The notes below the pieces were generated by a model. That model saw nothing but the letters and a program-made list of their open reading frames with translations. It was not told the DNA's origin and did no database searches. A stretch of 64,000 nucleotides of DNA from positions 620,001 to 684,000 of the forward strand of contig OZ025785.1 in the NCBI GenBank assembly GCA_964019425.1, given 5' to 3'. A program made the translations under genes and the position numbers. Source of the stretch: Flectonema sp. DT1601. Its lineage: Eukaryota. The first letter of the stretch is position 1. Every line of letters begins with the position of its first letter. Shown here in pieces: positions 7,544-57,698 of this stretch.

Positions 7544-8519
7544 AAACAATTTTTTGACTTCGTCTTACCTTTCTATTCGGTAGCATAAAAACTACACTTT
7601 AATTTTTTGTAAATATGTTATTGTTGTGTTGGTTTTTGAATAGTGGGGTGTTAAGTGTTTTATTGTTGTATTTTTTTTTTTTTTTTTTTTTGAAAAAAAA
7701 TATACCTTTCATGGTGTGAATAATTCATTGTGCAAGTCTTAATACCCGAAAATTGAGAAGAGATTTTCTGTGTCGGCGGCAGTTCGCTGCTATAACAGGT
7801 GGCCAGTACTTATTTCCCCTGCTCTTTTCTCTCTTTTTCAGCAGACATTTTTTGATCTGAGCTGTTGTGAACAATTACAACGGTTTTCTTTCCTCCTTGT
7901 TTCTACTTCTTTATTTTTAATCTACCGTTCGGGAAGGTTTGTTCACCATAACCTCCGACACCTTCATCTTTATGTCTTTTTTCTAATTTATTATCTTTAA
8001 AAAAAAAGTAGGGAAAAAAAACAAAAAAATCGAAAAAAAAAAAAAAATTAATTTTGGGGATCTGGAAGATTTTCGTAACGTGCTAATTATAGTTATGGTG
8101 CTTCGAAAGAGACCAACTTAATGTGGTCACCGAATCCCCATGTTCGACAGCACGATCAAAATTGTTGGATCCTTTATATTTAAACACACGCAGTAGCAAA
8201 GTTACTCTTCCACTTCCTTCACCACGCGCCCTTGATTTTTTATCTCAGGCAGACGTGTGATTGAAATGAGGAGGAATTTTTTTTTTATAATTTTTATTTT
8301 TTTTGTGTTCCTTTCGAAAATGCTATTGCTGCCGAAGGCTTTCAATAAGAAATCCCTTGGAGAAGTAATGCACATCAATCCCTTTTTTTTTCTTTCTTTT
8401 TTTTTTCTTCCTTTCCTTCTCTCTCGAGAGCTGCTAGAATACTACACCACTACACTATAATATTAAATCACTCACCCATAGAGAGGGCTGGTGTTTAAGA
8501 TTAAAAGTCAGAGGAACCT

Positions 8520-8880: not shown

Positions 8881-9755
8881 TGGTCAGTTGACTGAAGTGG
8901 CTGAGGCCTTCTTCGTTTTTTTTTTTTTTGCACCGACGAAGTCAGAGAAAAAACTATTTCTATTTACCTGTGCCGCCAGTAAAACTAGCTGTGATCAATT
9001 ATCTTTTAAAGCATAAATAACGGTATTGTATGTAGCACTCTCACCGTCTAGCTGGATTATGTTTTATCAAATAAAAAAAAAAAAGCAAAAAAAATTATGT
9101 GTGAGGCTAGTTTCTCTGTGAGTCAAATACATAGTTCTTTTTACCTTTTTTTTTTTTTTTTTTTTTCTTCTTCTCCCCAATTTATTTATTTACTTGATTT
9201 TTTTTTTGAAGTGTGTGTAAAAGAAAATACTAATTTTGTTAATCTGTAACGAGCTGCAGGGTATGCACCCCCCGAAATCCCTATATTCGACGGACAGTAA
9301 GTATGGGATTTTTATCAACCCCAACTGTTAGTTTCTTTTCATTGCGACCCAGATTTAGCTGGTTTCAAATTGCTTTATTTAATCATAGTATCAAGTTACC
9401 CCCTCTCATTTCGACATTACATTTATCCTAATGTAATGTCCTCTACGTGTTATACAGCTTTAGTCAACTGTACCATAATTCTGGTGCAATACAGATATTT
9501 ATATTTCTTCATAAATATGTTCAAAACGTTTCAAAACCCCCTGTTGTCAAAGATTGTCGAAGGAATTGTTGTTCCTTTGAGCGTTAAGAATGCAATATCA
9601 AATCTATCTTCTTATTGACATTCTGTGATGGGAACTAATGACTATGATGGTGGTAGATGAACTCTCATGCGTTAGTTCCTTAAGTAGAGGGAAAAAAAAA
9701 AAAAAAAAGGGAAAACCCCTAATTCCACAAAAATAGTTTGCGAAATCGCCAACTC

Positions 9756-25598: not shown

Positions 25599-28118
25599 AA
25601 TAAAAAAAGGAAACGAAAATATATAAAGAAAAGGGGTAGGTGTTCTTTACGAAAACAGGGTTGAAAAACCGTAATAAAAAAAAAAAAAAAGAAAAAAGAA
25701 AAAAACACCCTTTTCTGAAGACACGTTGAAAGAGTTTTTTTTTTTTTTCGTTTAACAGATACCACAATAGGAGTTATCAGCATATAATAATCGAATGTAT
25801 CCTTGTCATTTGGCTCCCTTGGACTTCGTTTAAATTTATACTATAATTAATTCTCAAACTCACTCTCTCTCTCTCTCTCTCTCTTTTTTTTCTCTTTTTT
25901 TTCTCCATTTAATTTTTATGAACATCAAAAAAAAAAAAAAAAAAAAAAGCTATCCTATACCAATCCTAAGATTGGGTCTACTGACGTTACTTTTGCATCG
26001 TATCCATCTCATGCCGATGGTCTTTGGTTTGCTGTATCAGAGATGCTCAGTACGCGCTGTGGACTTCCTTATCAACTTATCCACCTATTCATTTCTAAGC
26101 AACTTCTATTTTAACGAGTTGTCTTGATGCCACTTTTGGGGGTGTAACAACAAAAAAAAAAAAATGCGAGCCAAGCTAATTTATATTTCCCTCCCGCGGC
26201 ATGGGGGGGGGCCCCCTCTCGAATTCCCATATTCGACAGCATGTATGGGGATTTCATCGAAGCCTAATTGTTGGGGTCTTTTTTTTTTTTTTGACATAAA
26301 AAATAAATAAAATAACATGAAACCAACTAGGTTTCAAGTTGCTTTTATTTTTAAATTATAATCAAAGTAACTTACCTGCGGCCTTCTTATCTCGCAATCG
26401 TGCACTACGCTGCCGCTGATGGTTTTTTTTTTTTTTTCTTTGCTTTTGCGTTCAGTGTGTAGGGGTCTCTAACAAAAGTTTATTTAATTTACCCTCTCCC
26501 AAAATCTATTTTTTTTTAAAAATAAGTATTTAAACTATTTTTTTTTTTTTTTTTTTTTTTGACAAAAGTAATTAATAGGTGAAAAACTTACACTCTACCG
26601 TATTACATTGTGATCATTCTTATTTGAAAAACAGTTATATATATAAACTCGATTCCGTACTGAACTGAATGACAAAAAAAAAAAAAAAAAAAAAAAAAAG
26701 AACGGAAAAATGAGACATGTACGTAGATAAATTAAAAAAAGCATTGGCGAATTCAATATATCATCTGCGGAGGTGTTTACCTATACTGACATTCAACTGT
26801 TAGGTCAATAATAACAATTTATTTTTTAATTAACTTTGATACGGTCTACATTTCTTTTTTTTTTTTAATATTTTTTTTATATCACATCACTGCACTCAGG
26901 TTAAAACGTGAGCAACAACCCGTTTGTGCTGGAGTGCAAGTGGATCCTATCATTATTTCTTGCTTTTAGTCTTTAGTACGCCCTGCTTGAATTTTTTTTT
27001 TTTTTTTTTTAAAAATTGGGCGGAGGTTAAATAATCAACTGCCAGTGTAGTATGTTTTTTTTTTTTTTTTTTTTTTTTTTGAATTGGGGAAAAAAAAAAA
27101 AAAAACCGAGAGCAAAAGCAAAGCCCATGATATATTTTGCTTAAAAGTTTACGATCGTTTCTGAAGAAAATTCGTATTTCTATTTTATTAAAAAAACATT
27201 TTATCATGTTACAGCTCTCCCAAACTTTTCTTTTTATCTTGAATTTGGCACACTATTTTTGTAAACTCACCTTATAACCACAGTAGTGATGCTACGTACT
27301 AATTGCTGTAAAGAGGAAGGGGGGAGAGGGGGATTTTCCCCCCCTCTTCTTTTTGGAAGGTAAAAATCCCAAAACAACGCAAATAACAAAACGAAAGAAA
27401 AAAAATGATAATTAGAACAAAAACCCTCTTCATGAGGATGTGGATTTCTCCTTCGCACAAGGCGGCGCGGTGGTGACACTGTGCGCTTGCCAACTATAGT
27501 GGCAGAAAACAAACAACCAGGTCTCAGAGTAAACAAAAAAAAAAAAAAAAAAAAAAAAAAACAAAAGAAAATTGCGAAAAAAAAAAAAAAAAAAAACCCA
27601 TAATTTTATGTTGAGTATGAATAAGTTACGTTTTCTCATTTGTTTCCCACTCCTCTCTGATTATTTTCTGTAGAACGATTGGCTTGTTGAAGCCAATCAA
27701 CCTGCAGTGGGCAGCTACGTCTTTGGCAACAAAAAAAAAAAAAAAAGAAAATTACAAATAGGTCGTGTTCTTCATCCAGCCTTGGGATCCATCTACAGTT
27801 GGGTAGGACATCAGTTTTCCTCTCTGAGAATTTTAAAAAATCAATTTTTTTTTTTTTTGTAGCTGATTTTTCGTGCCCACTCCCACTCTTGCATATAGGT
27901 GGCATTCTCTCTTCTCCATACCCCCATACCCCTTTTCCCCTGTCCTCTCCCCCCACCGTCGTTTTATTTGTTCCGACGTTTTCTAATGTTTACCATTGTA
28001 GAGGCGAATTAAATATCATTTTTTAAAGTGTTTCACAGGTATCGTATGTGATGATGATAAAGAGCCTTCAGTGAAATAGTTGATATTTTTATATTTTCAT
28101 CAGGCACACCACACACAT

Positions 28119-31270: not shown

Positions 31271-31380
31271 ATATTTCACTTCTGCACCGATTTTGTAATC
31301 ACAAATGTTATTTATATATGTGGGTATTTGACGATGTGGAGACTGTTTCCTATTTCCACCTTTTCCCCCCTTTTAATTTT

Positions 31381-31553
31381 AAGCTGTAACGGGCTAAAGG
31401 GCAGGGGGGCGCTCAACCGTAGTACGTGACCCCCGAATCCCTATATTCGACAGCAAATGTGGGATTTTTTAGCGATACCAATCGTTGATTTTCTTATATT
31501 GCAACCAGGTTTGGCAGTTTCTTCATTTAATATTAGTATCAAGTTACCCCCCT
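31381..31553 (+). repeat. Solo copy of the Penelope-like element 3' structured motif
   Basis: Closely matches 52691-52896. Further copies or fragments at 8120-8152, 9243-9410, 26198-26376, 32242-32373 and 46794-46820. Confidence 0.85.
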
Positions 31554-33085
31554 TCACTCCTTTTGAAAAATGATCAATGCTTCCGGCTACTGTAGTAGTC
31601 TACCGTGTTTGTTGACTCCTTGGTTTGCTTTCTGAATGAACAGGAGTGAAAGAAAAAAAAAAATAAAAAAAAAAAAATAAAAAAAAATAAAATAAATGAT
31701 TTAATTCGTTGACGTGATTAAGTGCTCGTGATCTTGAAGCATGTTTTTCCCCTCAATTTATTTATTTTATTTGTATTTGTATTTTTTTTTTTTTTTTTCT
31801 GCATAAGCCTGGCTGTCGCTTGACGTCTCTATTGCGTAAAGAGTGAATCAGCTGTGTCTTTTGTTGGTTTTAGGGTTTTTTTTTTATTCTTTCTATTGTT
31901 GCCAGTTTTTTTTTCTTTTTTTTTTAGCTGTTGAAGACTGTGTGTGACAAACAACACCATGATCCTTGTTTCGAATATTGTTTCACAAAAACATTAATTT
32001 TTTTCTTCTTTTTCCCCCCTTGATGCTTTTTTCAAATAAGTGAATGCAACGCGCATATTAACCACTGCTATTAGTGGGGGGTAGGGTAAGTCATGAATAG
32101 TGCAAAGTTGCTCTCTTTTTTTTTCACTATTTCTTCCAACAAACACCTTTTTTTTTTACTTTGTGATTTTTTATTTATGTTTTTTTTTTTTTTTTCCCCT
32201 CCTCCATTTAGCTTGATAATACAGTATTGATTTATCCCCTTTGGGATTTTATCGATATCCAACTGTTAGTCTCTTTTCATTGTAACCAGGTCTGGCCAAA
32301 ATCTGATATTCGTTTTAGCCAGTTTCAAAGTTGCGTTATATTTTAATTGTAGGATCAAGATAACATCCCCCCCGTGCTTCATTTTGTTTCTGTTCTTGAT
32401 AATTAAAAGACCCCACCCCAGGTGTGTACTTCGTTAATTAGATTGATAAGTCCAACCTAGTGGTGGACACGTCGGGGTCCAACTGGTTAAGAATATTTTA
32501 ATTTTGGAATTTTTTGGTGATGATTTGTGCCTGCATTTTATGCTTGATAAAAGAAGGAGAAAAGAAAAAAAAAAAAAGAAAAACTCTCGGAACCTTGGCT
32601 TAAAGAAACAAAAGTGAGATGACTTCGTTGGTGAAAACTAATACTTTTATTGTCTCGTGTTCTTTTTTTGTTTCCATTCGATTATTTGTTCCTAAGTACT
32701 TATTAGAGAGATTTGTTTAATAACTGCGGGCAGTACGCGTTGAGAGCGTGCCCCTTTTTTTGAAACGAACATCTGCTCCTTTATTTTTCACACTCAGAGG
32801 GGTATTTCTGCTTTGTATCTGTTTTGGTAGTAATCATCTTTCCATTCCCCGAATCCCCCCCATCTGCCTCCTCATACGGTTCCCCTTCTCGATTTAATTT
32901 GATATCTTTTTATTTCATTCACCATATCTTGAACTGCTTCATCTTTAGTGTTGGTTTTTTTTTTCAAATTATTCAAATTTTTTTTCCCCCCCTCCTTATC
33001 CAGAGTCCACAGTTGTCAAAAAAAAAATGCTAACAGCGTGAAGTTCGAGTCCAAGTAAAGTCATTTTTTCTTTTTTTTTTGCAAA

Positions 33086-35553: not shown

Positions 35554-35675
35554 TGTTGTATTATTCGAAGGTCTTTTTTCTTTTCTTAATTATCGTTGGG
35601 AAAAAGTTCTCGAATTGAAGTTACGTATCCTTTGACTTAATTCTTCATCACCAGAAACTCATCCAGTTAAAAATA

Positions 35676-37880: not shown

Positions 37881-38301
37881 CCACCTTCAGCCATTGGTAA
37901 GTAATTAGCTCCCGTCACTGTACTCACTTGGGAAAGTAATTATTCGAATTGAAAACACCATATTCGGAACTCCTGCCGATACATTGATGACTTCCTTAAC
38001 TGGAGTTGCAACCCTCCTTCTGAAGAATCTGATACATTTTATCCGAAGTGGGACGCAGAATTTGTGGACTTCGCATCTCCACCCCGACGTGTCCCCTGAA
38101 TTCACATATTCAACAGCACGTATTGGGTTTTATTAACCGATTGTTATGCAACTTAACGACGAATGGTATTTTAAGTGTGTTTGCTTTTTGGTCATTGGTT
38201 GTCTTTTCGTACGTCTCGTTAAGTGTTTCAGCTATTTGTGTTTCGGAACTGTTTTGATGAAAATAATTTGATTCTCTCATTTATGCTTTTCAGGTTTCCA
38301 A

Positions 38302-39240: not shown

Positions 39241-39265
39241 ACTAACTAACAAAAGTGTCAATCGG

Positions 39266-40800: not shown

Positions 40801-41136
40801 TAGGTGACCCTAGTGAATCATTTTCGATGGAATTGTTTTGGGGATATTAATTTGGCTGAAAACATGGGATAGTCATGGGCAACCTGGCTAAGACTGTTCC
40901 AGTGCAGAAAAAAAAAAAAAAAAAAGAACTTTTTCTCAGAAAAAGCTGGTAGTTTTTGCAGCACGATCCTACATAAAATTTGTCGTTTTTTGGCACTTCT
41001 GGCTCCACCCTTGTACTCATAAGATACATTTTTCCCCTTTGTCGAAAAAAAAAAAAACGCGAAAGGCCCCGTACGTGGCCTTCAGGGCTTCTAGGGTTAA
41101 TATAAAAAAGTGCACTGAATTAAAATATAAAAAAGA

Positions 41137-42176
41137 ACATATTCAACAGCACGTATTGGGTTTTATTGACCGATTGTTATGCAACTGAACGACGAATGGT
41201 ATTTTAAGTGTGTTTGCTTTTTGGTCATTGGTTGTCTTTTCGTACGTCTCGTTAAGTGTTTCAGCTATTTGTGTTTCGGAACTGTTTTGATGAAAATAAT
41301 TTGATTCTCTCATTTATGCTTTTCAGGTTTCCAAATGGAGGAATCACAAAACAACATATGCACCGGTAGCAACGCCCAAGATAAATATTGGAAACAAGTA
41401 TTCCATCCTCTTTTTAAAAGTGAGGGGGATTCTTCAATAATTTCCGAATAGTAAAAAAACTGATATCTGAATTCTATCCGGAAGTGAAGAGGGGTCCAGT
41501 GGGTGAAACTCTTCTTCATAGATTGATATTAGGTCATCCTGATAAGGGGAAAGAGAATAAGTTAAGAAAGGTATTGGATTTACTACTCAAACTAGATGAC
41601 CCAGTGTTATTAATGGAAATAGTATGTCACGCCTACAACAGGAGGGATCTGAAAGTTGCGCAAGTAAAATCAGGAAGAGAGAGATCAACCAAATCACTTC
41701 GATATAAAGAATTAGTTTTTGATGGAGAAACAGGATTACACCTTGCTATTGCTTTTGGTGACATGGAATTGGTTGAAAACCTACTGTCGCTGGGGGCAGA
41801 CTTGTGCTCTAGAGCATACGGTTCTTCCTTTGCTCCTGGAGTATCCAGAACGTACTTTGGTGAATATCCCTTGTCCTTGGCAGCTGCGATGGGTTCTATG
41901 GAAGTCGCTGAAATAGTGCTGCGTCACTACTCTAAACAAACAACTGCTGTTTTAACAAGATATCATTTCGATAGTTACTTTTCACAATGTGACGGCCATT
42001 TCCCGTCAAGGTCCTGAACTTGTAGTCTCTGACTCACGTTGATTTGACTTCCTTTAGTGAAGTTATGACTATTGACAAAATTCTTTTTGTAATTGACTGT
42101 GAATCCCTGACCTCTATCGATGTTTCCAGACTTGAGAAGGTGACTACAATAGGAAGAGGTTTCGTTGGGTATTGAA
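41137..42176 (+). pseudogene. Duplicate of 38104-39120 (TRPV-like ankyrin fragment plus LRR remnant, copy 2)
   Basis: Near-identical sequence; ORF 41484-42017 carries the ankyrin motifs. Confidence 0.8.
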
Positions 42177-43672: not shown

Positions 43673-44783
43673 TACTTTTTTGAGTTTCCTTTTCGTGTTT
43701 CACATTCAGATCGCGAGATCTCTGAGTGGAACTCTCAGAAGAGCTACCGTCAGGACAATTCCTGCCATCGTGATTTGGACCCCCACGTGTCCAAGTCCAA
43801 CAATGTTCGTTTGGTTTTCTTTTTCTTAATTATTATTTCACTTGTTTGGGTGACTGGCAATTTTGGGCAGATAATCCTTACACCCACACGGTATATCGTT
43901 TTTTAGCATTTCAGGCCTTTCTGCCTATTTTTTATCCCAGCATCCTTTAGAAATTGCTTTAACTTCTCTATCCTTTTTCTTCTTAATTTTACAGGTACTC
44001 AGCAGCCAAATTCAGCAGAGAAATCAGTTATATTATTTACCCAGCAGATTTCGATCACCCAGATTCAAGGTCAGCAATAATTTTGCATAAAGTAAAGACA
44101 GTGATGACTCACTTTATTGTTGCTCTATTCTCATTCCAATTTAACAGCCATTGTTTTGAGACATTCTTAAAAGACAAAAAGCAAATCGAAGACTTCCATT
44201 CGATCACTTTGATGAGATCTACCGAACCACATAATTTAGTTTCCATGTGATCACAATAAAACCTCAGACAACTAATGTGAGCGTTGCTATGACATCTGAG
44301 AATAAAAGGAACCATTGAAGGTCTGCGAAGAGAAAATCAAACGCAAGATGGTTGACGACAACTCGTTAGATGGAAACGACACAAATAAAAACCCAATTTC
44401 AGTAGTTATAAGTTTAAACTGAACGAAAAGCAAATACACATTGCTAGCTATCTTGGCGAATTCCGATGGATTGTTACGTACCTTAGAATAATAACAAATT
44501 CAAAATAGAATAATATCTCCAGAACTTACTGATGAAGGACTAAAAGAGACGAGTAGTACAAGATTAAAAACCTAAAACTACATCCTGGATGTTTTCCCTT
44601 GCTTTCATCGCTGAAGAGGGGAATGGTCGGGAGAAATATTAAATCAGAGTTCACGCTGATATTCTTCAGGTGTTTCCAGACAAGTGGGAAGTTGACTCAC
44701 AGAAGTTTCCTTCATTCTTGAATTGAAGTTACGTATCCTTTGAATTAATTCTTCATCACCAGAAACTCATCCAGTTGAAAATA

Positions 44784-46466
44784 ATGACAACTATCGATTC
44801 CCTGTCCTCTGTTTTGAGGAGCCATCAGAGGTTCATGGCGAAGCTGCTGGTGGAAGTGGTGAGTCGGAAGGAGGAGTCGGGGGCGCTGATGGACAGTTTT
44901 TCAGAAGTTCTCAGATCGTCGGAGGAGATCATGGATGGAATGACGGATGCTGAGGCTGCGACTGAATTGACGACGTATAAGGAAGTACACCGGGTGGCGA
45001 GGGAGAAGGAGTCGGCGAAGTTGGTGGAAGGAAGCTCGCGATTACTGGGGAGCCTTTCCTTGCATCCTGACATGAAGTGTGCCGATATCGGGTTCGTTAA
45101 AGCTGATCTCAAGGGGGACGGGAAGATGGAGTTGGTCGAAGATGACCTGAGGAATGTATTCTCGTCCACCTGCTTCCCTCGGTTGCTGAACGAGGATGAG
45201 TATTTCAACACACTTCAAATTGGTTACTTGGGCATGGGTGAAACAGAAGAGGGTGTCCCAGCCCAACTCAGGAAGGAACTCTTCCTGCTGCTGGACTGGC
45301 CGAGACTCTCCCACTCGTCGAAGGAAGAAGTCAGATCCCAATTTGACAACACCTCATGGGGTGCTGAGATCCTCCGTGAGCTGGAAGATTCGAACAACTG
45401 GGGTACTGTGAAAAGAACATACAAATGGCCGTCTGAACGTGTTGTGACTGCGGAGGACCTGAAGACTCCACTTACTCGAATTGACGTTTTGTTCACACAA
45501 AATCCCGACATGTTGTGTGTCCTCGATGCGTCGGAATATATTGACTATGAAGGCACCCTTTCTAATGATTGTGTCAAGAAGCTTCCGTCCTGCATCCGTC
45601 GGTTGTCATTCACCAACTGCAGCCGTTGTATTAAATTTCAGGAGAATTTCCTGTCAGACGGTTGTGACTCGCTGACGTCAATCAATTTCAGTGCTTTTAA
45701 CAACGTGACGGCCATCCCCAGCAAATTCTTGAATAACTTGAAGTCTCTGACTCACGTGGATTTATCTTCCTTGAGTGAAGTTACGAGCATTGCCGATGAC
45801 TTTGTTAGTAACTGTGAATCCCTCACCTCCATCGATGTTTCCGGTTTTAAGAAGCTGACTAGAATAGGTTTTGTATTCTTGAATAATTCAAAGTCCCTGA
45901 CTCACGTGGATTTATCATCCTTTGGTGAAGTTACGAGTATTGGCGATGACTTTATTAGTAACTGTGAGTCCCTCACCTCCATCGATGTTTCCGGTTTGTC
46001 CAAGCTGACTACAATAAGAGATAGTTTCTTGTTAAATGCAAAGTCTCTGACTCACGTGGATTTATCATCCTTGAGTGAAGTTGCCATTATTGGTTGTGAC
46101 TTTATTAGTGACTGTGAGTCTCTCACGTCTATCGATGTTTCCGGTTTGAAGAAGCTGACTGTGATAGGAAGTGGATTTTTGAATAAAGCAAAATCTCTGA
46201 CTAGCATGGATTTATCTTCCTTGAGTGAAGTAACGAACATAGGCGATGACTTTATTAGTAACTGTGAGTCCCTCACCTCCATCGATGTTTCCAGTTTGAA
46301 GAACCTGACTTCAAAAGGAAGTGGATTCCTTCAAAATTCAAAGTCCCTGAGTAGCGCGGATTTATCTTCCTTGAATGAAGTTACGAGCATTAGCGATGGC
46401 CCTCCGTTGAGATACCTTGTAGATAGGTACTTAAGCTCCTTTGATGTGTCCCATATGATTAAATAA
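44784..46466 (+). CDS. LRR protein paralog (one cap+LRR module)
   Basis: N-terminal ~215 aa almost identical to the 35676 gene; intact frame; different LRR string. Confidence 0.9.
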   Translation: MTTIDSLSSVLRSHQRFMAKLLVEVVSRKEESGALMDSFSEVLRSSEEIMDGMTDAEAATELTTYKEVHRVAREKESAKLVEGSSRLLGSLSLHPDMKCADIGFVKADLKGDGKMELVEDDLRNVFSSTCFPRLLNEDEYFNTLQIGYLGMGETEEGVPAQLRKELFLLLDWPRLSHSSKEEVRSQFDNTSWGAEILRELEDSNNWGTVKRTYKWPSERVVTAEDLKTPLTRIDVLFTQNPDMLCVLDASEYIDYEGTLSNDCVKKLPSCIRRLSFTNCSRCIKFQENFLSDGCDSLTSINFSAFNNVTAIPSKFLNNLKSLTHVDLSSLSEVTSIADDFVSNCESLTSIDVSGFKKLTRIGFVFLNNSKSLTHVDLSSFGEVTSIGDDFISNCESLTSIDVSGLSKLTTIRDSFLLNAKSLTHVDLSSLSEVAIIGCDFISDCESLTSIDVSGLKKLTVIGSGFLNKAKSLTSMDLSSLSEVTNIGDDFISNCESLTSIDVSSLKNLTSKGSGFLQNSKSLSSADLSSLNEVTSISDGPPLRYLVDRYLSSFDVSHMIK

Positions 46467-47156
46467 AGCAAGGTCACTGACTAGCTTTCTTGTCTTCCTT
46501 TAATGAAGTTACGAGCATGTTGGAGGAATGCAGTGATGTCGTTAGAAAGAAATTACGGTAGTTTTCGGTTTTGCTTTTTTTTTTTTTTTAAATAGAAATT
46601 AGTGTTATTTTAAAATATAAGAAATAACACCAACTACAACTATTAGTAGGTTATTAGATTTCTTTCACTTTATATTTGTTGGTGATGAGAATTGAAAAGT
46701 ACGAAGTTAAGAAAGTATCCTAAGTGAATTTGTCTTTAAGTCAACCATCGGACTTTAAACTGAGATAATGAGCCGTTACCTTCAATCATTAGAGGTGGCC
46801 TTAAAGCCCCATATTCGACATGTTAAACAGGTTTGAATTAACCTGTTTACCATGTAGTGTTAACCAGTTTCAAAAATACTTATGATGAGCCTCAACCAAA
46901 TGTGTTTTTTGTTGGCTATCCCTACGACGAAGTAATCTGTGATGGTTTTACAGTGTGGATAATTATAACTTAACTTTGTGATCTCAGTTCTTTTTTGATC
47001 TTTCACCCTTCGAAGGAAGCTAAATTAATTGAACGTGTCGTATTATTTGAAGGTCTTTTTCTTTTTTTAATTATCGTTGGGAAAAAGTTCTCGAATTAAA
47101 GTTACGTATCCTTTGACTTAATTCTTCATCACCAGAAACTCATCCAGTTAAAAATA

Positions 47157-48700
47157 ATGGCAACTGTCGATTCCCTGTCCTCTGTTTTGAGGAGCCATCA
47201 GAGGTTCATGGCGAAGCTGCTGGTGGAAGTGGTGAGTCGGAAGGAGGAGTCAGGGGCGCTGATGGACAGCTTTTCAGAAGTTCTCAGATCGTCGGAGGAG
47301 ATCATGGTTGGAATGACGGATGCTGAGGCTGCGACTGAATTGACGACGTACAAGGAAGTACACCGAGTGGCGAGGGAGAAGGAGTCGGCGAAGTTGGTGG
47401 AAGGAAGCTCGCGATTACTGGGGAGCCTTTCCTTGCATCCTGACATGAAGTGTGCCGATACCGAGTTTGTTAAAGCTGATCTCAAGGGGGACGGGAAGAT
47501 GGAGTTGGTCGAAGATGACCTGAGGAATGTATTCTCGTCCACCTGCTTCCCTCGGTTGCTGAACGAGGATGAGTATTTCAACACACTTCAAATTGGTTAC
47601 TTGGGCATGGGTGAAACAGAGGAGGGTGTCCCAGCCCAACTCAGGAAGGAACTCTTCCTGCTGCTGGACTGGCCGAGACTCTCCCACTCGTCGAAACAAT
47701 CAGTTTAGCGTCTCGATCAGGACGGAAAATAGAAATTAATCGACATCGTCGATCGATAAAAAAAACAATGATAACGTTGTTTATTCTTTTTTTTATTTTT
47801 TTTTAAAGAAGTAAAATCCCAATTTGACAACACCTCATGGGGTGCCGAGATCCTCCGTGAGCTGGAAGATTCGAACAACTGGGGTCCTGTGAAAAGAACA
47901 TACAAATGGCCTCGGTATGAACGTGTTGTGACTGCGGAGGAGTTGAGAACTTCACATCTTCGTACTCGAATTGGCATTTTGTTCACAGAAAGTCCCGACA
48001 TGTTTTGTGTCCTCGATGCCTCAGAATATATTGACGATGAAGGAACCCTTTCTAATGATTGTGTTGAGATGCTTCCGTCTTGCATCCGTCGGTTGTCATT
48101 CACCAACTGCAGCCGTTGTACTTCATTAAAGATGCAGTTCCTTTTAGACAGCAACTCCATCGATGTATCCGATTTGAATAAGCTGACTACAATAGGAATT
48201 GGATTCTTAAGTAATTCAACATACCTGACTAACGTGGACTTGTCTTTAGTGAAGTAACGAGCATTGACGATGACTTTATTAGTAACTGTGAGTCCCTCAC
48301 CTCCGTCGATGTTTCAGGGTTTAAGAAACTGACTACAATAGGACATAAATTCTTATATAATTCAAAATCTCTGACTCAGGTGGATTTGTCTTCCTTGAGT
48401 GAAGTTACGGGCATTGGCAATCATTTTGTTAGAAACTGTGAGTCCCTCACCTCCATCGATGTATCTGGTTGGTCTAGGGTGACCCCAATAGGAAATAGAT
48501 TCTTGAGTTATTCAAAGTCCCTGACTAGCGTGGATTTGTCTTCCCTGAGTGAAGTTACGAGTGTTGGTGATGGCTTTATAATTAAGTGTGACTCCGTCAC
48601 CTCCATCGATGTTTCTGAAATCCAGAATTTTGAAAAAACTTTGGCGGAATTAGGTATCCATTTCTTTTTCTGCCAATTCTGTTCCAAATGTCCTTCTTGA
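47157..48700 (+). pseudogene. Disrupted third LRR paralog
   Basis: Same N-terminus, a ~108-bp insertion at ~47697-47804 carrying a stop, and later deletions and frameshifts. Confidence 0.85.
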
Positions 48701-49381
48701 TCCCCCTCCTCACTCGAGATCAGGATCCATACGTTGATGATCGGGTTGTTAAGTAAAAAGAGTTCGCAATAGCAAATTCTCGAATTGGAAAAAAAAAAAT
48801 CATATTCAGTGAACAGCGAAAAAAAAAGAAAAAAATCTTTTACTGAACAGCGAAAATGAAATTATTGGACCCTCCCCCCAATAGTCACTGTATCATGATT
48901 TTCTTTTTATTATTGAGTTCTGATACAATACAGAGATTTATGAACCTAATCAAACAGTCTTCCCCCCAGTAGCGAAAACCTCTTCGTATTATTATTACTT
49001 ATTTTGCTTTAAAAATTTCTACCTCTTTTTTTTTTTTAATCATTATCATTATCAACATCTTTTCCTCTCCCCAAACTTTGTTATTTTGAACCGGTCAAGG
49101 CGGAAGTTGAGGTATTCAGTTCTCTCGAACATTAGTTTTCCTCGCTGAAGCTAAAAAAGTGATCCTCAGGGATAAGGTTCGACATAATGTCGTAGTATTT
49201 GGGGACTCAGGTGGTTAACTTACCGTTCCACCCTTTCGTTGTCTATCTAACCACAAACTCATATTCTAACTAACTCGATGTGTTTTAATAATTTTTTTTT
49301 ATTTTCTTTTTTAAATATTTTTAATAATAGTAATAAACTCATATCCTAACTCAAGAATCAAGATGTTAGGAACCTGCAGAA

Positions 49382-52300
49382 ATGAAAACTCTTTTTTTTT
49401 TTTTCCCCCCCTTTTTTTTTTCCCCCCAATGTCCTTGTTATCAATACAAAGAAGATAATTGTAATACCAAACATGTTGCAGGACATTGTTCTTCCTTGAA
49501 ATGTAGTGATCAACTAAAAGAGGTACTAAAGTTAGGAATGCTTTACCGTATTCACTGTTCACAACATGAGATGACACAAGAACTTCATGAAGCAACTGAT
49601 AGATTTACCGAAAAAGTAACGAGATTCATGATTGGTACAACTAAAAGCGACAGAGAAGCAAACGCCGAAGTCTTAAATAGATGGCTGAAGGAAGAATTCA
49701 CTTCACAAATACAATTAAAACCCTTACCCAACGATGCAACTTTAGCAAAGTGTATGAAAGAATTAAAGGACCTAAAAAAACATGTCGTATTCCTCCCAGT
49801 GGATAAAGCAAGACATGATTGCGCAGTAATGTGCAAAGCTTATTATTGTGAGCTATTGAAAAATGAAATGGAAAGTTACGAACAAGTAGAAAATGTATTA
49901 ACAGACGGGTTAATGAAAACAAATAAGGAACTCAAATTTCCAAAAATCACTGGCGCAGTGCTGTACTTATATGGGATTTTTAAACTGCATAAGATCCCAG
50001 ACATCCGCCTTAGATGGATTGCAGGTACTTCTGTCAACTGTGAAACTTTGATTGAGGAAACGAAAGAACCTGACAAAGAGACTGACGAATCAAAGAAGGT
50101 GACCAATACAAGAGAGAGAGTTTTTCGATCCAATGTAATGACACACGCTCAACAAGAACTTACTGGAATTATTAAGTTAATACTGCTCACACTAAAATCA
50201 AAGGACCATATGGAATATGTAAAGACTGGTGTTAGAAAATATTTTATTGTTGACTCAGTAGATGAGGTAATACAACGGATTAAATCCAACTACCCTGAAT
50301 TTTTAAAATACGCTGAACCCAAAACTTATGACTTCACCACCATGTACAGCAACCTGAAGCATAAGGTACTTAAACGAAATTGCAAAGAAGCAGTAGATGA
50401 AGCTTTTAGATTTTCCGGTAAGAAACATATTGCACGAAATAGCAGAGCACGTGGAAAGTCCAAGACTTTCTTTTTCACAGACGGAGTTGATGCAAACACA
50501 AAGGAATACACTTCCGAAATGATTGGTAAACTAATTGACATGTGTATCGACTATTCTTTAATCCAACCGATTGGTAGTCATCAATGCTACCGTCAAACGA
50601 AAGGGATACCCATGGGTGGTAATGCCTCCCCGCTTCTAGCTAACTTGTATTGTTATGCAGTTGAGAAGAAATTTATAGAACAGTCAACTCTGGAAATTGC
50701 GAAGTCACATACTTTAACAGTAAGATATATTGATGATTTTTTATGCTGGGGGACAAAACCACCGCCGCAAAAGATGTACGGGATGGACTACAAAGATACC
50801 TCCCTAGATAGTAATGATGTGGTGTTTCTTGGTGCACGGATACGGGTCGAGGAAGACATTGCAAGGGAAGAAGTGAAAGTGAAAAAGAAATTTATTCGTC
50901 TCTCCGTTCATCGGAAAGAGTGGAACTTCAAACCTTTACAGTACGTGCATGCAGACTCCACGATGCCTGATTCCATACCCAAAGGTATAGTTAAAGGAGC
51001 GATGTATAGAGCCAGCATGATTTGTAACAACCTCTCTGACCTACTAATAGAGTTTGAATGGATAATTTATCGGATGATTACTAGAAAATTTAAAAAGCAT
51101 CACATATCAACCGGCTACAAGGAATTTTGTGACGAATTCTATGAAGAATATCCTTTTGTCAATAAAAGATGCATCAATCTTTTCTACCGGATCCTTGAAG
51201 GCTTGAAGAAAGATTATTACTACCCGACTAGTGAAAGAAACTATATAACGTACCCGCCCATCGAAAAAGATGAAATTGAAACCGACAGAACAGCTGTCCT
51301 AGTTCAAAAATTGTCATCCCCTACCAATTCGGATGCCAAGGTGAATCTGGGACATTTGGACGAGTTGGTTTCTTATTTTACGTTTCGGGATATGAAAACT
51401 CTACTAGAAACTATGGACTGGGACTTAACAATACCCTCGGTAAACACAGCAGGTAATTGTTTCTTTGAATCTATGGCACTAATAATTTGTCAAAATGGAG
51501 TCATAAACGCTGAATGGGTACGTAGAGTTATACATCGTAGACTGACTTTAAAGAAGGAGCAATACCAAAGTTTTGTAGACACAGATTATGAAAAATTCAC
51601 AGAAGATGTACTTGACAGTAATACATATACAGATCATGTGTATATTCAAGCTTTCTTAGATGAAATGGGTTGTTCTTTAATACTAATCACTATTAATAGC
51701 GTGCAGGAAAAAAGTTTACGATGGATTTCCCCAGCCAGTACACAAGATACATATTTTTGGGGTACGATCGGTGTAATGGCGTACCATACTACTTCTGAGC
51801 ACTATATGCCAATTTTACCGAGAAGTCACGGAAAACAATGCACCATATTTACTATGTCGCAATGGAATTATGAGGCTTTTATGAATTTAATAGTACCTGA
51901 ATTAGCGAAAATGTGTCCTAATTTTGTCGACGCTGATCCTCTTCTATCGAAAGCGGGTGCCACTATGAACCTTTTAACCTTCGACAACGTTAATTATGAT
52001 GTTTACGAACTGTTACATTACTGGTACTTCGATGAGATCAAAATGAAAGCAGCCACAACAATGTCAAGTTGCTCAGATTTAACCTCAGAAACCGTATCTG
52101 TGACCTCTTCCGATTCATCTTCCTCAACTACTTCCTCAAGTTCTAATACGATTGATGAAGAGCTAGTTGTGGATGTACTTATTAATTTATTAGAAGATTC
52201 AGATATTCTAATCTTTAAAGAAGAGCTCCACTTATGTCCAGCAAGACACAACCTGAAATTTGCGAAGGTAAGTAGTAATATGTACTGTAATATCTGTGAT

Positions 52301-52510
52301 CGCAACATGCCACAAACCACTTATAATCTTGCATTCCAATGTAGACAAAAAGACTGTGATTATGATGTTTGTTTGAGTTGTTTGGGATTATTCATCTGTA
52401 CTGCGTGTGGTGCCACGGAATCTCAGGCCGGAAGACAATTTAATTTACGAGGCTTAAGATCACACCAAACTCATTGTACAGTCTTTCGAGAGCAAAGCGA
52501 ACGTAGTTAA
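49382..52510 (+). CDS. Penelope-like reverse transcriptase fused to an OTU-like cysteine protease and C-terminal zinc fingers; no GIY-YIG visible
   Basis: CPC...HVAGH linker, PVDKA...VMCKAYY, KLHK...RWIAG, YDFTTMY, GIPMGGNASPLLANLY, RYIDD, FLG. Then AGNCFFESMA...SEHY, then CPARH...CNIC...C..DCDYDVCLSC and CTAC...H...C. Confidence 0.9.
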   Translation: MKTLFFFFPPFFFSPQCPCYQYKEDNCNTKHVAGHCSSLKCSDQLKEVLKLGMLYRIHCSQHEMTQELHEATDRFTEKVTRFMIGTTKSDREANAEVLNRWLKEEFTSQIQLKPLPNDATLAKCMKELKDLKKHVVFLPVDKARHDCAVMCKAYYCELLKNEMESYEQVENVLTDGLMKTNKELKFPKITGAVLYLYGIFKLHKIPDIRLRWIAGTSVNCETLIEETKEPDKETDESKKVTNTRERVFRSNVMTHAQQELTGIIKLILLTLKSKDHMEYVKTGVRKYFIVDSVDEVIQRIKSNYPEFLKYAEPKTYDFTTMYSNLKHKVLKRNCKEAVDEAFRFSGKKHIARNSRARGKSKTFFFTDGVDANTKEYTSEMIGKLIDMCIDYSLIQPIGSHQCYRQTKGIPMGGNASPLLANLYCYAVEKKFIEQSTLEIAKSHTLTVRYIDDFLCWGTKPPPQKMYGMDYKDTSLDSNDVVFLGARIRVEEDIAREEVKVKKKFIRLSVHRKEWNFKPLQYVHADSTMPDSIPKGIVKGAMYRASMICNNLSDLLIEFEWIIYRMITRKFKKHHISTGYKEFCDEFYEEYPFVNKRCINLFYRILEGLKKDYYYPTSERNYITYPPIEKDEIETDRTAVLVQKLSSPTNSDAKVNLGHLDELVSYFTFRDMKTLLETMDWDLTIPSVNTAGNCFFESMALIICQNGVINAEWVRRVIHRRLTLKKEQYQSFVDTDYEKFTEDVLDSNTYTDHVYIQAFLDEMGCSLILITINSVQEKSLRWISPASTQDTYFWGTIGVMAYHTTSEHYMPILPRSHGKQCTIFTMSQWNYEAFMNLIVPELAKMCPNFVDADPLLSKAGATMNLLTFDNVNYDVYELLHYWYFDEIKMKAATTMSSCSDLTSETVSVTSSDSSSSTTSSSSNTIDEELVVDVLINLLEDSDILIFKEELHLCPARHNLKFAKVSSNMYCNICDRNMPQTTYNLAFQCRQKDCDYDVCLSCLGLFICTACGATESQAGRQFNLRGLRSHQTHCTVFREQSERS

Positions 52511-52690
52511 TTATCACTCGCAGCAAAGTATTGCGAGATGTGCTCCACTGGTAGTGTGCTACGAACCAGAAATAATTTATATTTTATTTTTATTCTTTAT
52601 TTCTTTTATTATTTTTGCAAAAATAGTTTTCTTTTTTTTAATTTTCCTTTAATATTTATTTACCTTTGAAGTGTGAAGGAATACTATTTT

Positions 52691-52896
52691 AAGCTGTAAC
52701 GGGCTACAGGGCATGGGGTGCTCAACCTGTAGTACGTGGCCCCCGAATCCCCATATTCGACAGCACATATGGGATTTTCTATCGATACCAACTGTTGATT
52801 TCTTATATTGCAACCAGGTTTGGCCGAACCCTATTTTCGTTTTTGCCAGTTTCAAGTTGCTTTCCATTTAATATTAGTATCAAGTTACCCCCCTCA
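52691..52896 (+). ncRNA. Candidate structured RNA in the 3' flank of the Penelope-like element
   Basis: Nested stems gctgt/acagc, gggctac/gtggccc, gggca/tgctc and cgaat/attcg, with complementary segments atgggg/ccccat; multicopy. Confidence 0.5.
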
Positions 52897-53458
52897 TTTT
52901 TTCTAAACTAATTAATAACACTAACTCAAGTATCCGATTCCTCCTTTCTTAGTGAATTCCTAGTATAAGATTAAGGCTCCTGAAACTACATATTCTATTA
53001 CCCTATGAATACTTTTCTTTTACTAATCTCTACTTTTCTTATTCTCACTTTTTTCTAAACTAAATTTAATGATACTAGCTAACTCAAGAATCTTTCTTCG
53101 CTGAAGAGGGCTGGGTAAGGGGAATTTTTGCATTCGATTGAATTTTGCCGCCCTCTCCCCTTCTTTTTTGACTGATAACCATTAATACTAACTCAAGAAT
53201 CCCATTCCTCAAAAAAAAAAAATAATAATTTACACTTTTTTTTTTTTCAAAATAATTGATTTAAAAGAAATTTCGAGTACTCTTATTATGATATCAAACA
53301 GAACAACAACAAGAACATGAATTGTTGTGAATACTGGTGAGTTTCTTTATTGTGTACTACCAGTCAACATATGGCTACTGATTCAGCAATAAATGTAATT
53401 AAAAAGAATTTCACATTATTAAAAAAAAAAAATTAAAAAAAAAATAAGGAAAAAAAAA

Positions 53459-55648
53459 ATGAATCAAGTAGTCATTTTAGTAGTGCTGTTATCGATCTGT
53501 TGTGTTGTGTTGGGATTCAAACCGTCACCAAATTTAAATGACTTACTGATATTTAGAAATGGAACTCAAGTGAAAAGTGTGGATGACTGGACAACTCGAA
53601 GAGAAGAATTAAAATATCTTTTGCAACAACACATTTTAGGGACGCTACCTCATGAGATCCCTGCGTTGTTATCGACAAAGACAGTTAATAGTTCGTTATC
53701 AGAAGGAGGCGTGAGATCAACATTTATTTTACTTAATTTTAGTCGTAATGTCTCTACTTATATTGAATTATTATACTCTGAAAACGACGTTATTAATAAT
53801 AAAAAACTACCGATATTTCTAACACAATGGAATCACCGATTGTGGTCAGCACTCGCTGTCACCAGAGGATACATCGGAGTGACTTACATGGGTGCAGACA
53901 TAGCAGATTCTGCACCCGATTTTCAAAATGCATATCCCAATTGTACGATGAAGCTGATTCTAGCAAGAGCATTTGTTTTAAGTAGGGTAATAGACTACGT
54001 TGTTACCCTCTCTTATGTTAATTCAAGTCAAATATCTGTGTCTGGACACTCTCGCAATGGCAAGCAATCAATCATTGCGGCGGCATTTGATGAGAGAATA
54101 ATGTCGGTTGTTGGATCGAGTCCTGGAGCACCAGTCGCATCTCCATTTCATTTTACGTCGTCAAACTATTATGGAGAAGGTCCTAGAACTGGTAATGTTG
54201 CTGGGTTATGGTGGTTGGAAAGTATTTTACAGTATGATGAGCATCCTGAGAACCTTCCAATTGATGGACATGCGATTGTTGCGTTGATAGCTCCGAGACA
54301 CGTCATAATCTCAACAGGTAGAACTGATTTTGAATCTGACATGGTATTCGCAGGTGAAATGAACGTTAAAAGCGTCACTAAAGTCTACAGCAAATTTTAC
54401 AACAAAGCAAGCCATCTGAGATTAATGACACGGGATGGTGATCATCACGGATATGATGATTTCCACACATACTTTGATTGGATTGATTATTCTTTTAATA
54501 GAAGAGAGAGATCACTTTCTAATAACAATCTCTGTGCTGGTTGTTTTATGATCCATCCAGAAGACTTATCAACATACACTACTGCTGCTGGTTTTTCATG
54601 GGGTCGGTGGAATCACTCTTATGGAGAACTTACTACTACTAAACCAGATATATCTTCCCCACTCATATCAAGAGTAAATTGGCTACTACAATTACCAACA
54701 TCACCTTTTTCATTTTCTGGTGGAAACATCGGAGAAGAACACAAAGCATCAAACTATATTCCCGGAATGCTTAGGCATAGCACAGCTTTTTCTAATATAA
54801 ACAGCTTTATTGTTTCTTTTGGAGAAGATTTGGATGCAACGTTGTATTGGCCTAAGAATGTGACGAATACTCGGCAACCTATTTTGATATGGTTGCATCC
54901 ATACAGCTATAATACTGGATACTCGCCTTCTTATAGACAAAGTAATGTCGCTCAGGAAATGGCTGCTGATGGTCATGTTGTGATGACATTTGATCAAATT
55001 GGTTTTGGTTTAAGAAATTTTAGAGGTGGAAATGTCTTTTATGATCGATACGGAGGAAGATCAAGTTTGTTTGGACGAATGACACAAGAAGTGAGTATGG
55101 CGGTTGACTTCTTGGTGTGTAGGTCGAAATCACCTCCCGATGAGAAGTGTGGTCAGCAATTTCAATTTGAAAACACAGAATTCAACAACCTCCCCTTAAT
55201 CGATCCGACTCGTATATCCGTAGCAGGATTCTCACTCGGTGGTAACGTTGCTATTCACTCAGCTGTTTTAGATAGCAGGATATCAGCAGTTGCGACATTC
55301 TCATCATGGACACCAATGCGAACTGACACTTCAGATCTCCCGACTGGTGGCCTCTCTCGTCTTTATGACCTTCATGGTCTGATACCAAGACTTGGATATT
55401 TTCAATATTCTGAACAGTCTGTTCCTTATGATTACATCGATTTGATTAACAGCATATCTCCTCGTCCTCTTCTTGTTCATGCCCCGTTACATGATCGTGA
55501 TGCGTCATTCTCTCATGTTTTAAAAACTATTAATTCTGTGAAACCTTCGTATCCGAAATTGACTTTCAGCTCACCTGATCGAAACGGGACAATGGAAGCC
55601 GAAGAAGTCGCTATTTTAAAAAAATGGTATTCAGCAATGATGATGTAG
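53459..55648 (+). CDS. Secreted tandem alpha/beta-hydrolase (CE15 glucuronoyl-esterase-like domain plus a second hydrolase domain)
   Basis: Signal peptide; W..RREEL; SGHSRNGK...AAAFDERI; ALIAPR. Second domain DQIGFG, AGFSLGG, SISPRPLLV. Confidence 0.85.
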   Translation: MNQVVILVVLLSICCVVLGFKPSPNLNDLLIFRNGTQVKSVDDWTTRREELKYLLQQHILGTLPHEIPALLSTKTVNSSLSEGGVRSTFILLNFSRNVSTYIELLYSENDVINNKKLPIFLTQWNHRLWSALAVTRGYIGVTYMGADIADSAPDFQNAYPNCTMKLILARAFVLSRVIDYVVTLSYVNSSQISVSGHSRNGKQSIIAAAFDERIMSVVGSSPGAPVASPFHFTSSNYYGEGPRTGNVAGLWWLESILQYDEHPENLPIDGHAIVALIAPRHVIISTGRTDFESDMVFAGEMNVKSVTKVYSKFYNKASHLRLMTRDGDHHGYDDFHTYFDWIDYSFNRRERSLSNNNLCAGCFMIHPEDLSTYTTAAGFSWGRWNHSYGELTTTKPDISSPLISRVNWLLQLPTSPFSFSGGNIGEEHKASNYIPGMLRHSTAFSNINSFIVSFGEDLDATLYWPKNVTNTRQPILIWLHPYSYNTGYSPSYRQSNVAQEMAADGHVVMTFDQIGFGLRNFRGGNVFYDRYGGRSSLFGRMTQEVSMAVDFLVCRSKSPPDEKCGQQFQFENTEFNNLPLIDPTRISVAGFSLGGNVAIHSAVLDSRISAVATFSSWTPMRTDTSDLPTGGLSRLYDLHGLIPRLGYFQYSEQSVPYDYIDLINSISPRPLLVHAPLHDRDASFSHVLKTINSVKPSYPKLTFSSPDRNGTMEAEEVAILKKWYSAMMM

Positions 55649-55952
55649 ATTACCTTTTTTTTTTTTTGTATTTAACAAAGTATTGTAAGAACGAAAAAAG
55701 AATGTTAGGTAGCACACGTAAACCTCCTTTAGCTTTTTATCGGTTTCTTGACACAAAACAATTATTTTATTTCTAAAATCTTTTCTCTCTCTAACACAAA
55801 TTCTTTTCACCGAAGATTTGAAGTTGCACGCGTACGACAGGAAAAAAAAAAAAAAAAAAGAATTATCTACCTTACCCTCTCTATGTTAACCAACATCATG
55901 AATGAGACTCTCACTTCACTTTATATTTCATTACAGAGATTAAATTCACAAT

Positions 55953-57698
55953 ATGAAAACACACCTTATCCTGTTGCTGTTACTTGTAGGTTCTGCTGTA
56001 GGGCTTCACTTGAATATTTGTGGGATAAAATGCACCAATAGAAATCACAAATGTTTTCCTTCTGATGCGGAAATCAGATTGTTTGGGGAAACACTGAATG
56101 GCGATGTGTTTATATTGCAAGATCCGGAATACTTGAATTTAACGATTATGAATAATCTTTTATTCAGAGAGATCCCTGCGTTTGTCGTCACTCCGAACAT
56201 TGACGATGACATAGTGAAGGTAATCAGATTTGCGAAAGAAAAGAATATGAGGCTGTCAGTAAGAGGTGGTGGTCATGCCTACGATGGTCAAAATGTCCAA
56301 CAAGATTCAATTTTGATAAATATGAAAAATTATCTAAAAATTGACATTCACAAGGAAGATTCCAAGCACCCATATGTCAACCTCGGAACTGGTTTGATTT
56401 TTGAAGAAATCTACGAAGAAGTTTACAAACACAATCTGGTGTTCAATGGTGGCAGCTGTCCAACTGTTGGTGTCGCTGGTTGGACACAAGGAGGAGGAAC
56501 AACAGCTGAGAATCGAATGCTTGGATTGGGAGTTGATTCTGTCTTATCAATGCGTGTTGCCCTGATGAATACGAAAATTGTTACCATCACTGCTGAGAGT
56601 GAGGAGTATAAAGATTTGTTTTGGGCTCTTCTGGGAGGTGGAGGAGGGACATACGCCATTATATTGGAATACAAGATGAAACTTCACATTCCTCCACCAA
56701 CATTTACATCTCTATCACTTGACTTCGTATGGAGTACGTCACTGATGAGTGATTGTGGGAGATCAGCGATGGATTTTTGGATGAGTATTCAGGATGATAT
56801 CCCAAGTGAATGGGGTGTTTATGTTGTTCTATCATCACTGCCGAGCAATCACGGAAATGATACTGACGTTCCCCTTAGATTATCATCATGGCAAAATAGA
56901 AATCACAGAAGTGTTTCAAAAATCCAACGTCAGTTTCTTTCCAGCAGAGGTGTTTCACTTGAACATGATCACAGTGGTTTATTGACCTTTCATGGATTGT
57001 ATTGGGGTGATATTGAAGAGGCTAGGAAGTCAATTCAACCACTACTCGATTTTAAACCTCAATGTCAACTTCGTGTGATCGATTTCTCAGATCAATTCAT
57101 GCCTCCATTAGAAGTCAAACCTACCTTTGAAAGCTATCAATCCGAAATTACATGCAGTAGAGGTGGTGGTCTTGGATGTCGAGACAGAATTTCTAACAAA
57201 CCGTTATTTGTGACTCCGGAGATGGTTAATGATGAACTTTATGATCTTCTTGACACTGTTGCGAATTTCAAAACCGATGACCCATCAGAAGGAGTTGGTT
57301 TCATGTGGACTGCTCTCGGAGGAGCAGCATCAAAACCAAACCCAGACAATAGCATCAGTTCTGGTTTCAGAAATGCATTTGGAAATGGTGCCTTCAACGG
57401 CTACTGGTCTGACAGATCACGCGATGATTATTTTACTGGATTTTCAAGAACTTTCGGAAGACACATGTACGAGATAGCTGACAAAGCAGCAGCAAAAAGC
57501 AACGATGTTGCATACATGTACGTTAACTACCCTGACACAGATGGTATTCACAGTTGGCATAATCGGTACTTTGGAGAAGCTTATGAACGTCTTGCTGAAA
57601 TCAAATTGAAATACGATTCTTCTAACATGCTTTTAAAATTTCAAGGAGTAGGATGGCCTGTGCTTGATGAAAATGCCGAAACTTGTCAGAACAAGTAA
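55953..57698 (+). CDS. Secreted FAD-linked oxidase, berberine-bridge-enzyme-like
   Basis: Signal peptide; RGGGHAY; GSCPTVGVAGWTQGGG (His and Cys for bicovalent FAD); DLFWALLGGGGG; YVNY...RLAEIKLKYD. Confidence 0.9.
   Translation: MKTHLILLLLLVGSAVGLHLNICGIKCTNRNHKCFPSDAEIRLFGETLNGDVFILQDPEYLNLTIMNNLLFREIPAFVVTPNIDDDIVKVIRFAKEKNMRLSVRGGGHAYDGQNVQQDSILINMKNYLKIDIHKEDSKHPYVNLGTGLIFEEIYEEVYKHNLVFNGGSCPTVGVAGWTQGGGTTAENRMLGLGVDSVLSMRVALMNTKIVTITAESEEYKDLFWALLGGGGGTYAIILEYKMKLHIPPPTFTSLSLDFVWSTSLMSDCGRSAMDFWMSIQDDIPSEWGVYVVLSSLPSNHGNDTDVPLRLSSWQNRNHRSVSKIQRQFLSSRGVSLEHDHSGLLTFHGLYWGDIEEARKSIQPLLDFKPQCQLRVIDFSDQFMPPLEVKPTFESYQSEITCSRGGGLGCRDRISNKPLFVTPEMVNDELYDLLDTVANFKTDDPSEGVGFMWTALGGAASKPNPDNSISSGFRNAFGNGAFNGYWSDRSRDDYFTGFSRTFGRHMYEIADKAAAKSNDVAYMYVNYPDTDGIHSWHNRYFGEAYERLAEIKLKYDSSNMLLKFQGVGWPVLDENAETCQNK

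Follow-up and report, generated by a model that had tools for sequence, protein, structure and literature searches.

A dispersed repeat in the 3' flank of a Chlamys-type Penelope-like element from an inferred diplonemid: a probable element terminus with a persistent predicted hairpin

Introduction

The reverse transcriptases (RTs) of Penelope-like elements (PLEs) are the closest relatives of telomerase. How these enzymes choose their RNA and prime its copying is at issue, most of all for the Naiad/Chlamys elements, which have no hammerhead ribozyme. The locus described here raises this question directly. Within a 64-kb stretch of DNA, analyzed over its full length and hereafter called the window, a multicopy structured RNA with a possible kissing loop had been predicted in the 3' flank of a PLE, and had been proposed to act as a ribozyme or as a site recognized by the RT. 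Is this sequence a catalyst, a signal for the RT, or simply the end of the element? Should the origin of the repeat be the only part to stand, the sequence amounts to an ordinary retroelement end. On the other hand, a 33-nt hairpin that is kept across subfamilies, next to a young element with intact full-length open reading frames (ORFs), offers a concrete substrate for studying RNA choice and priming.

Genomic setting

Every long ORF of the window lies on the plus strand, without interruption. Among named sequences, those most closely related to the RT come from Diplonema papillatum and D. ambulator. We infer that the host is a diplonemid with polycistronic gene arrays, which are known in D. 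papillatum (PMC10161547).

Several other features of the window were observed. A 5.9-kb block (9709-15643), flanked by a 57-bp inverted repeat (9709-9765 and 15587-15643, 91% identity), contains an APE-RT LINE ORF (10095-14075), a tRNA-like stretch and degenerate LSU rRNA fragments (15007-15414, minus strand); about 3600 LSU rRNA pieces have been described in D. papillatum (PMC10161547). By eye, two stretches (14565-14640 and 15557-15590) appeared tRNA-like, with T-loop-like sequence, and ARAGORN reported zero tRNAs. Tandem-duplicated BspA-type LRR genes and ankyrin fragments, several of them broken, are clustered at 35619-48700, and genes resembling glucuronyl-esterase and FAD/berberine-bridge enzymes (53459-57698) fit diplonemid carbohydrate metabolism. 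Short intergenic repeat families with 78-97% identity were also present (6328/49156, 8652/26014/29904, 4183/7437/55668, 23359/30881, 15940/17713 and 53095/62928). Finally, a 14-nt motif with six matches in the window (0.7 expected) occurs on both flanks of the PLE and the repeat (49346, 52921, 53079 and 53188), which looks like an older patchwork region split by the insertion.

The neighboring Penelope-like element

The ORF upstream of the predicted motif (49370-52510, plus strand) is a 5'-truncated Chlamys-type PLE, in which the CxC motif, RT, thumb, OTU-like region and Cys-rich C-terminus span 49427..52510. It corresponds to residues 396-1428 of the 1428-aa protein P0019 (98.7% identity), whose cluster has 29 members, and it differs from three full-length copies at 5-8 of 1026 amino acids. 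In P0019, a GIY-YIG endonuclease domain (101-196; E 0.0023, which is weaker than the Pfam cut-off) lies N-terminal to the RT (750-841), and a CxC motif at 403 and a DK motif at 525 (PVDKA; DKT or DKS in relatives) precede the RT. Inspection of residues 95-205 against the Naiad-like P0016 showed that the second Cys and the second His are missing, and thus that there is no CCHH motif. An N-terminal GIY-YIG without CCHH, followed by CxC, the DK motif and the RT, is the layout reported for Chlamys elements (Craig et al., 2021; PMC8557442). The window copy has been truncated at the CxC motif and has lost the N-terminal GIY-YIG part, and its 5' junction directly follows a T/C tract ending in C5. Chlamys elements are frequently 5'-truncated and target (C)n/(CA)n tracts, and this one copy shows both a 5' truncation and a C-rich junction. 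No hammerhead core (CUGANGA...GAAA) was found on either strand of 52511-53458 or of repeat copies B, C, D and F (described below), and a lone CUGANGA at 53101 is outside the repeat. Inspection of the PLE and the repeat copies in the window revealed no evident pLTR or target-site duplication. These sequence features support the assignment of the element as a Naiad/Chlamys-type PLE without a canonical hammerhead and with the layout of Chlamys, in agreement with the original prediction.

Downstream of the stop codon, the segment 52511..52659 (plus strand) comprises the proximal 3' untranslated region (UTR) and an AT/T-rich tract; among the solo copies of the repeat, only copy C has its last few bases. 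A pyrimidine-rich tract ending in AG (52575-52670) lies within the inferred 3' UTR, and one might speculate that a tandem copy further downstream could use it as a spliced-leader acceptor.

Deubiquitinase-type domains of three kinds follow the RT thumb in related PLE ORFs: OTU (P0039), UCH (P0006, P0011 and P0013) and Josephin (P0012 and P0014). The window ORF (51470-52500) aligns to the OTU region of P0039 (E 9e-9), with no Pfam OTU match of its own. The relevant section of PMC8557442 describes a Josephin-like case only, and OTU has zero occurrences in the text and one supplementary file of that study. These three domain types may possibly outrank the repeat motif in interest.

Copies of the repeat

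The predicted motif proved to be the 5' third of a dispersed repeat of approximately 240 bp, of which nine copies, all on the plus strand, are present in the window. The original prediction had listed six copies besides the PLE-flanking one. All six are real and on the plus strand, and two unlisted ones (38087 and 41138) were added; however, the copy at 46794 is weak and that at 32242 lacks nearly all of the structured part. The shared orientation carries little weight because all ORFs in the window are on the same strand. A 21-nt pattern of the persistent arm matched five times in the window (0.01 expected). The evidence from repeat copies comes from this 64-kb window.

Copy A (52660..52893), which begins approximately 150 nt past the PLE stop codon and ends in a C6 run, is master-like and is inferred to be the 3' terminus of the PLE. 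Copy B (31376..31553; 90% identity to A) has an internal deletion and appears to be a decayed daughter of an A-like master. In copy C (9181..9411; ~70% to A), a 20-nt deletion has taken the 3' strand of helix P2, and the long hairpin and the 3' end are kept. Copy D (26198..26370) has no P1/P2 scaffold and a degenerate 3' end, and its long hairpin is perfect, with 12 bp. Copy H (32240..32373; 80% to A) retains only the 3' two thirds and ends in C7, whereas copy E (8074..8153) consists of a diverged 5' part and the arm only. Copy F (38087..38131; 82% to A) starts about 10 nt past a decayed RT fragment, F2 (41138..41164) lies within a segmental duplicate of the F region (41137-42176 versus 38104-39120, 95%), and G (46794..46820) is a weak match (BLAST E 0.13) whose upstream flank resembles that of F (0/200 shuffles). 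Thus, G is probably the F insertion duplicated along with LRR genes, and F, F2 and G probably represent one event. With 41138 a duplicate of 38087 and 46794 sharing its upstream flank, the nine copies probably reflect about seven independent insertions.

The 3' end is common to A, B, C and H and is followed by 5-7 C, with a degenerate version in D; in contrast, the 5' ends are staggered. Using copy edges drawn by eye on sequence already viewed, we found a run of at least four C within 12 nt upstream of four of the seven 5' edges (the PLE, B, C and H; the run of H may be element sequence), compared with a background of 3.7%. No solo copy in the window extends into 52511-52640 or into the ORF of the A family.

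An outgroup vote assigned each of the 12 substitutions that separate A from B to B (p = 0.0005); the outgroups were aligned to A, which favors A. In an earlier count the ratio was 17:5, with eight substitutions unresolved, and the MAFFT alignment used for it was misaligned in part. A also has the fewest private changes (3.7% versus 7-23% in the others). That all 12 changes fall in B indicates that A is master-like, as would be expected had A arrived with a young element.

Beyond these copies, a covariance model of the repeat yielded no new window copies beyond 41135, and exact-pattern scans gave zero matches in metagenome contigs and zero in prokaryote genomes. A relative of the RT was not found in viral contigs either. 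The repeat was absent from 39 distant Naiad/Chlamys loci, which were searched with a repeat HMM, by local alignment and with the covariance model; in one run, 33 of them offered a usable 3' flank. ARAGORN, a terminator scan and Rfam returned nothing over the motif.

The originally predicted fold

The helices of the original prediction can all be drawn in A: P1 (52693-97/52760-64), P2 (52701-07/52736-42), an inner hairpin (52709-23) and an arm (52744-59), together with the complementarity of ATGGGG (52713-18) to CCCCAT (52749-54) proposed as a loop-loop pair and an alternative pairing of 52745-56 with 52767-77. The nested fold with its loop-loop pair (52693..52764, plus strand) is thus formable, but its structure was not above chance. 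For the 72-mer, the folding z-score was -0.69, with 43 of 200 shuffles folding as well, and the minus strand behaved alike (-0.81). The minimum free energy (MFE) structure of 52693-52764 contains P1, P2 and the arm, and the predicted fold reached -22.5 kcal/mol versus -26.8 for the MFE structure. Mean pair probabilities in the predicted fold were 0.20 for P1, 0.41 for P2, 0.18 for the inner hairpin and 0.19 for the arm, and that of P1 ranged from 0.02 to 0.20 across contexts. A perfect 6-bp complement occurred in 40% of 500 shuffles, and at least three, as observed, in 5.4% (0.6 expected).

Comparison among copies gave a similar picture. The scaffold is whole in A alone, and B is the sole other copy with all of its parts; C, D, F, G and H lack at least one strand of P2 or of the inner hairpin, and H is almost without the structured part. 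In B, 3 of the 22 nested pairs are broken (2.9 expected at random), as is one of the six loop-loop pairs (0.8 expected); since B is decayed, its broken pairs are neutral with regard to the fold in the master. The loop-loop complementarity is present in A and D only. In B, C, E, F and G its pairs have been disrupted or deleted, and no double change was seen among the six other copies examined, a set with too few intact masters for a firm reading. For the arm, the covariation test revealed one double change, in F, which consists of two CpG-type transitions and was matched by 140 of 500 shuffles. The persistence of the arm is partly due to ascertainment because copies D to G were found through it. 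Copy E suggested by eye a compensation in a shifted register and a GAAA-capped insert, and its predicted fold (z -1.34) did not reproduce that of A.

Ribozyme families were also searched. The Rfam covariance models (4227 families, including twister, pistol, hatchet and hairpin) gave zero matches over any copy at E <= 5. The HDV-like ribozyme is a nested double pseudoknot of P1, P1.1, P2, P3 and P4, with CNRA in J4/2. An HDV-like reading of A was rejected on topology. Its 7-bp helix, CGAA and 6-bp cross pair do occur in HDV order, but the G that P1.1 would need after this helix is missing, and so are P4 and a 3-bp P3 closing a loop of 7-8 nt. An HDV-like descriptor, run with no positive control, gave zero matches; strict descriptors overlook trypanosomatid ribozymes (PMC4035085, from which the helix names are taken). 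With no significant covariation and no Rfam, hammerhead or HDV match, neither the kissing loop nor the ribozyme gained support.

A persistent long hairpin

The alternative pairing forms a long hairpin (52745..52777, plus strand) with 11 pairs, one bulge and a 10-nt loop, which is the most persistent segment of the repeat. It is predicted in A, B, C and D, being the MFE structure in these four of the seven copies folded, as well as the RNAalifold consensus. Its z-scores ranged from -2.1 to -3.6 on windows picked around the hairpin, and it has lost none of its 11 pairs in B compared with 1.5 expected (p = 0.18). The ensemble probability was 0.56-0.59 in two contexts and 0.04 in a third (52510-52900). 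The mutually exclusive fold of the original prediction is therefore the better kept of the two, but its covariation, on an alignment that contains misaligned rows, was not significant: the paired fraction was reached by 22 and the two double changes by 47 of 500 shuffles. That the hairpin is a signal for the RT of the element is a tentative suggestion that we would hold at somewhat below even chance. If RT recognition exists, the hairpin may be the best candidate binding site.

Origin of the repeat

A second PLE-derived coding segment of the window lies beside copy F. The decayed RT palm fragment at 37953..38077 (plus strand; E 1.8e-5) runs from motif C onward with one deletion and one frameshift, matches P0158 at 15 of 19 amino acids and belongs to a second PLE family: only 31 of 57 nucleotides are identical to the window PLE, whereas the arm region of F is 82% identical to A. 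Both PLE-derived coding segments of the window thus precede a repeat copy. The chance of F adjoining the RT fragment is approximately 0.05, because a deletion between them must be assumed, which would have removed the entire thumb-to-UTR stretch.

We conclude that the repeat is probably the 3'-terminal untranslated end of Chlamys-type PLEs. The broader reading, in which it is the PLE 3' terminus, the solo copies are short, 5'-truncated and decayed, and the hairpin is an RT signal and not a catalyst, also appears reasonably likely as a whole. The mechanism would follow Chlamys biology and the anatomy of the copies. The element RNA would extend to approximately 52893, the GIY-YIG endonuclease would nick a C-rich tract, and reverse transcription would begin near the 3' end of the repeat and usually halt within 130-240 nt, with the RT perhaps gripping the RNA, for binding or positioning, through the long hairpin, which lies about 115 nt before this end. 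Insertions of 130-240 bp left behind would then decay into solo copies. De novo Chlamys insertions in Chlamydomonas have a median length of 128 bp by 5' truncation, at (C)n targets (bioRxiv 10.1101/2022.05.23.493040), and non-autonomous Chlamys elements have 3' ends in common with their autonomous counterparts (PMC8557442). The predicted derivation of solo copies from the PLE 3' flank thus probably stands; they resemble ordinary short 5'-truncated insertions and not a proven non-autonomous family.

Two other origins have to be weighed. The repeat might be an independent SINE/SIDER-like retroposon, with the PLE inserted in a C/T tract before a resident copy and ending near 52573. A-type PLE sequence is indeed lacking from eight of the nine copies, T-rich tracts also precede the solo copies B, C and H, and the 5' C-tract of the PLE rejoined to 52573 resembles by eye the upstream flank of C; many small repeat families occupy the intergenic DNA here, and dispersed repeats abound in diplonemid genomes (PMC10161547). 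However, an old resident copy would not be expected to be master-like with every A/B change in B, the repeat follows both coding segments, and it has no tRNA or Rfam head, so that this origin seems unlikely. Rather improbable is the proposal that the repeat is a decayed coding piece (the RT palm end and thumb) with incidental hairpins. It would explain why F continues straight from the RT fragment near the expected thumb position, translations show scattered thumb-motif look-alikes in the right order, and, with a close-relative profile, A outscored 59 of 60 shuffles. Nevertheless, frameshift-aware profiles left all copies within the window-tile null, the closer profile gave inconsistent registers with most copies at shuffle level, and a codon-aligned DNA profile detected the F fragment and zero repeat copies.

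A catalytic role needs separate consideration. A master that folds into a three-way junction with a loop-loop helix, self-cleaves and replaces the PLE hammerhead would agree with the formation of all helices in A, the only master-like copy, and with the presence of P1, P2 and the arm in its MFE structure. The three perfect complements are a borderline excess (p ~0.05), D retains both loop partners, the breaks in B are post-insertion decay and no refutation, and the position matches the hammerhead site of other PLEs (PMC8557442). Against this stand the chance-level folding, the low P1 probability, the shuffle-level covariation of the arm with its CpG-type double change, the loss of the loop-loop pairs in five copies and the zero matches to known ribozymes; moreover, Naiads and most Chlamys elements proliferate without a hammerhead (PMC8557442). 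We consider such a ribozyme very improbable. An RNA switch in diplonemid Chlamys-type PLEs, with a kissing-loop junction cleaving the polycistronic transcript and the long hairpin handing the 3' end to the RT, would combine both folds, and we would give this model the least credence of all.

Comparison with known systems

With the Chlamys clade (Craig et al., 2021; PMC8557442), the window PLE family shares the N-terminal GIY-YIG without CCHH, CxC, DK and RT, as well as 5' truncation, C-rich junctions, the lack of a canonical hammerhead and a C-terminal protease-like extension (Josephin-like in Chara). It differs in its inferred diplonemid host, a group absent from the text and one supplementary file of PMC8557442, and in its OTU-like C-terminal domain, and a pLTR was not seen in the window copy. 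A 3' RNA motif is not described in the available part of that study. The literature searched, which was mostly non-subscription and included the available parts of PMC12278014 and bioRxiv 10.64898/2026.07.22.740005, contained no report of a Chlamys-type PLE in diplonemids, and the words Penelope, GIY-YIG, Naiad and Chlamys are absent from the supplements of the D. papillatum paper. The window PLE thus seems to widen the known range of Chlamys-type PLEs to include diplonemids.

Hammerhead ribozymes of PLE pLTRs and non-LTR retrozymes (bioRxiv 10.64898/2026.07.22.740005) resemble the repeat in their link to a PLE 3' end and in their dispersed short copies, whereas the repeat has no CUGANGA...GAAA core, Rfam match or tandem arrays. 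The trypanosomatid SIDER/Pr77 HDV-like elements (PMC4035085) are also short, degenerate intergenic repeats of euglenozoans, co-oriented with polycistronic genes. However, their origin is ingi/L1Tc and their ribozyme sits at the 5' end, whereas the window repeat is linked to a PLE 3' end and offers no place for P1.1, P3 and P4. The short or non-autonomous Chlamys insertions (Chlamys-9/N4_cRei and MRC1) are similar in being short (median 128 bp), in carrying the 3' end of an autonomous family and in their (C)n target; in contrast with them, the window copies are diverged and show no head-to-tail arrays or pLTRs. By analogy, the repeat most likely works like the 3' end common to autonomous and short Chlamys insertions, and not like a hammerhead or HDV-like ribozyme.
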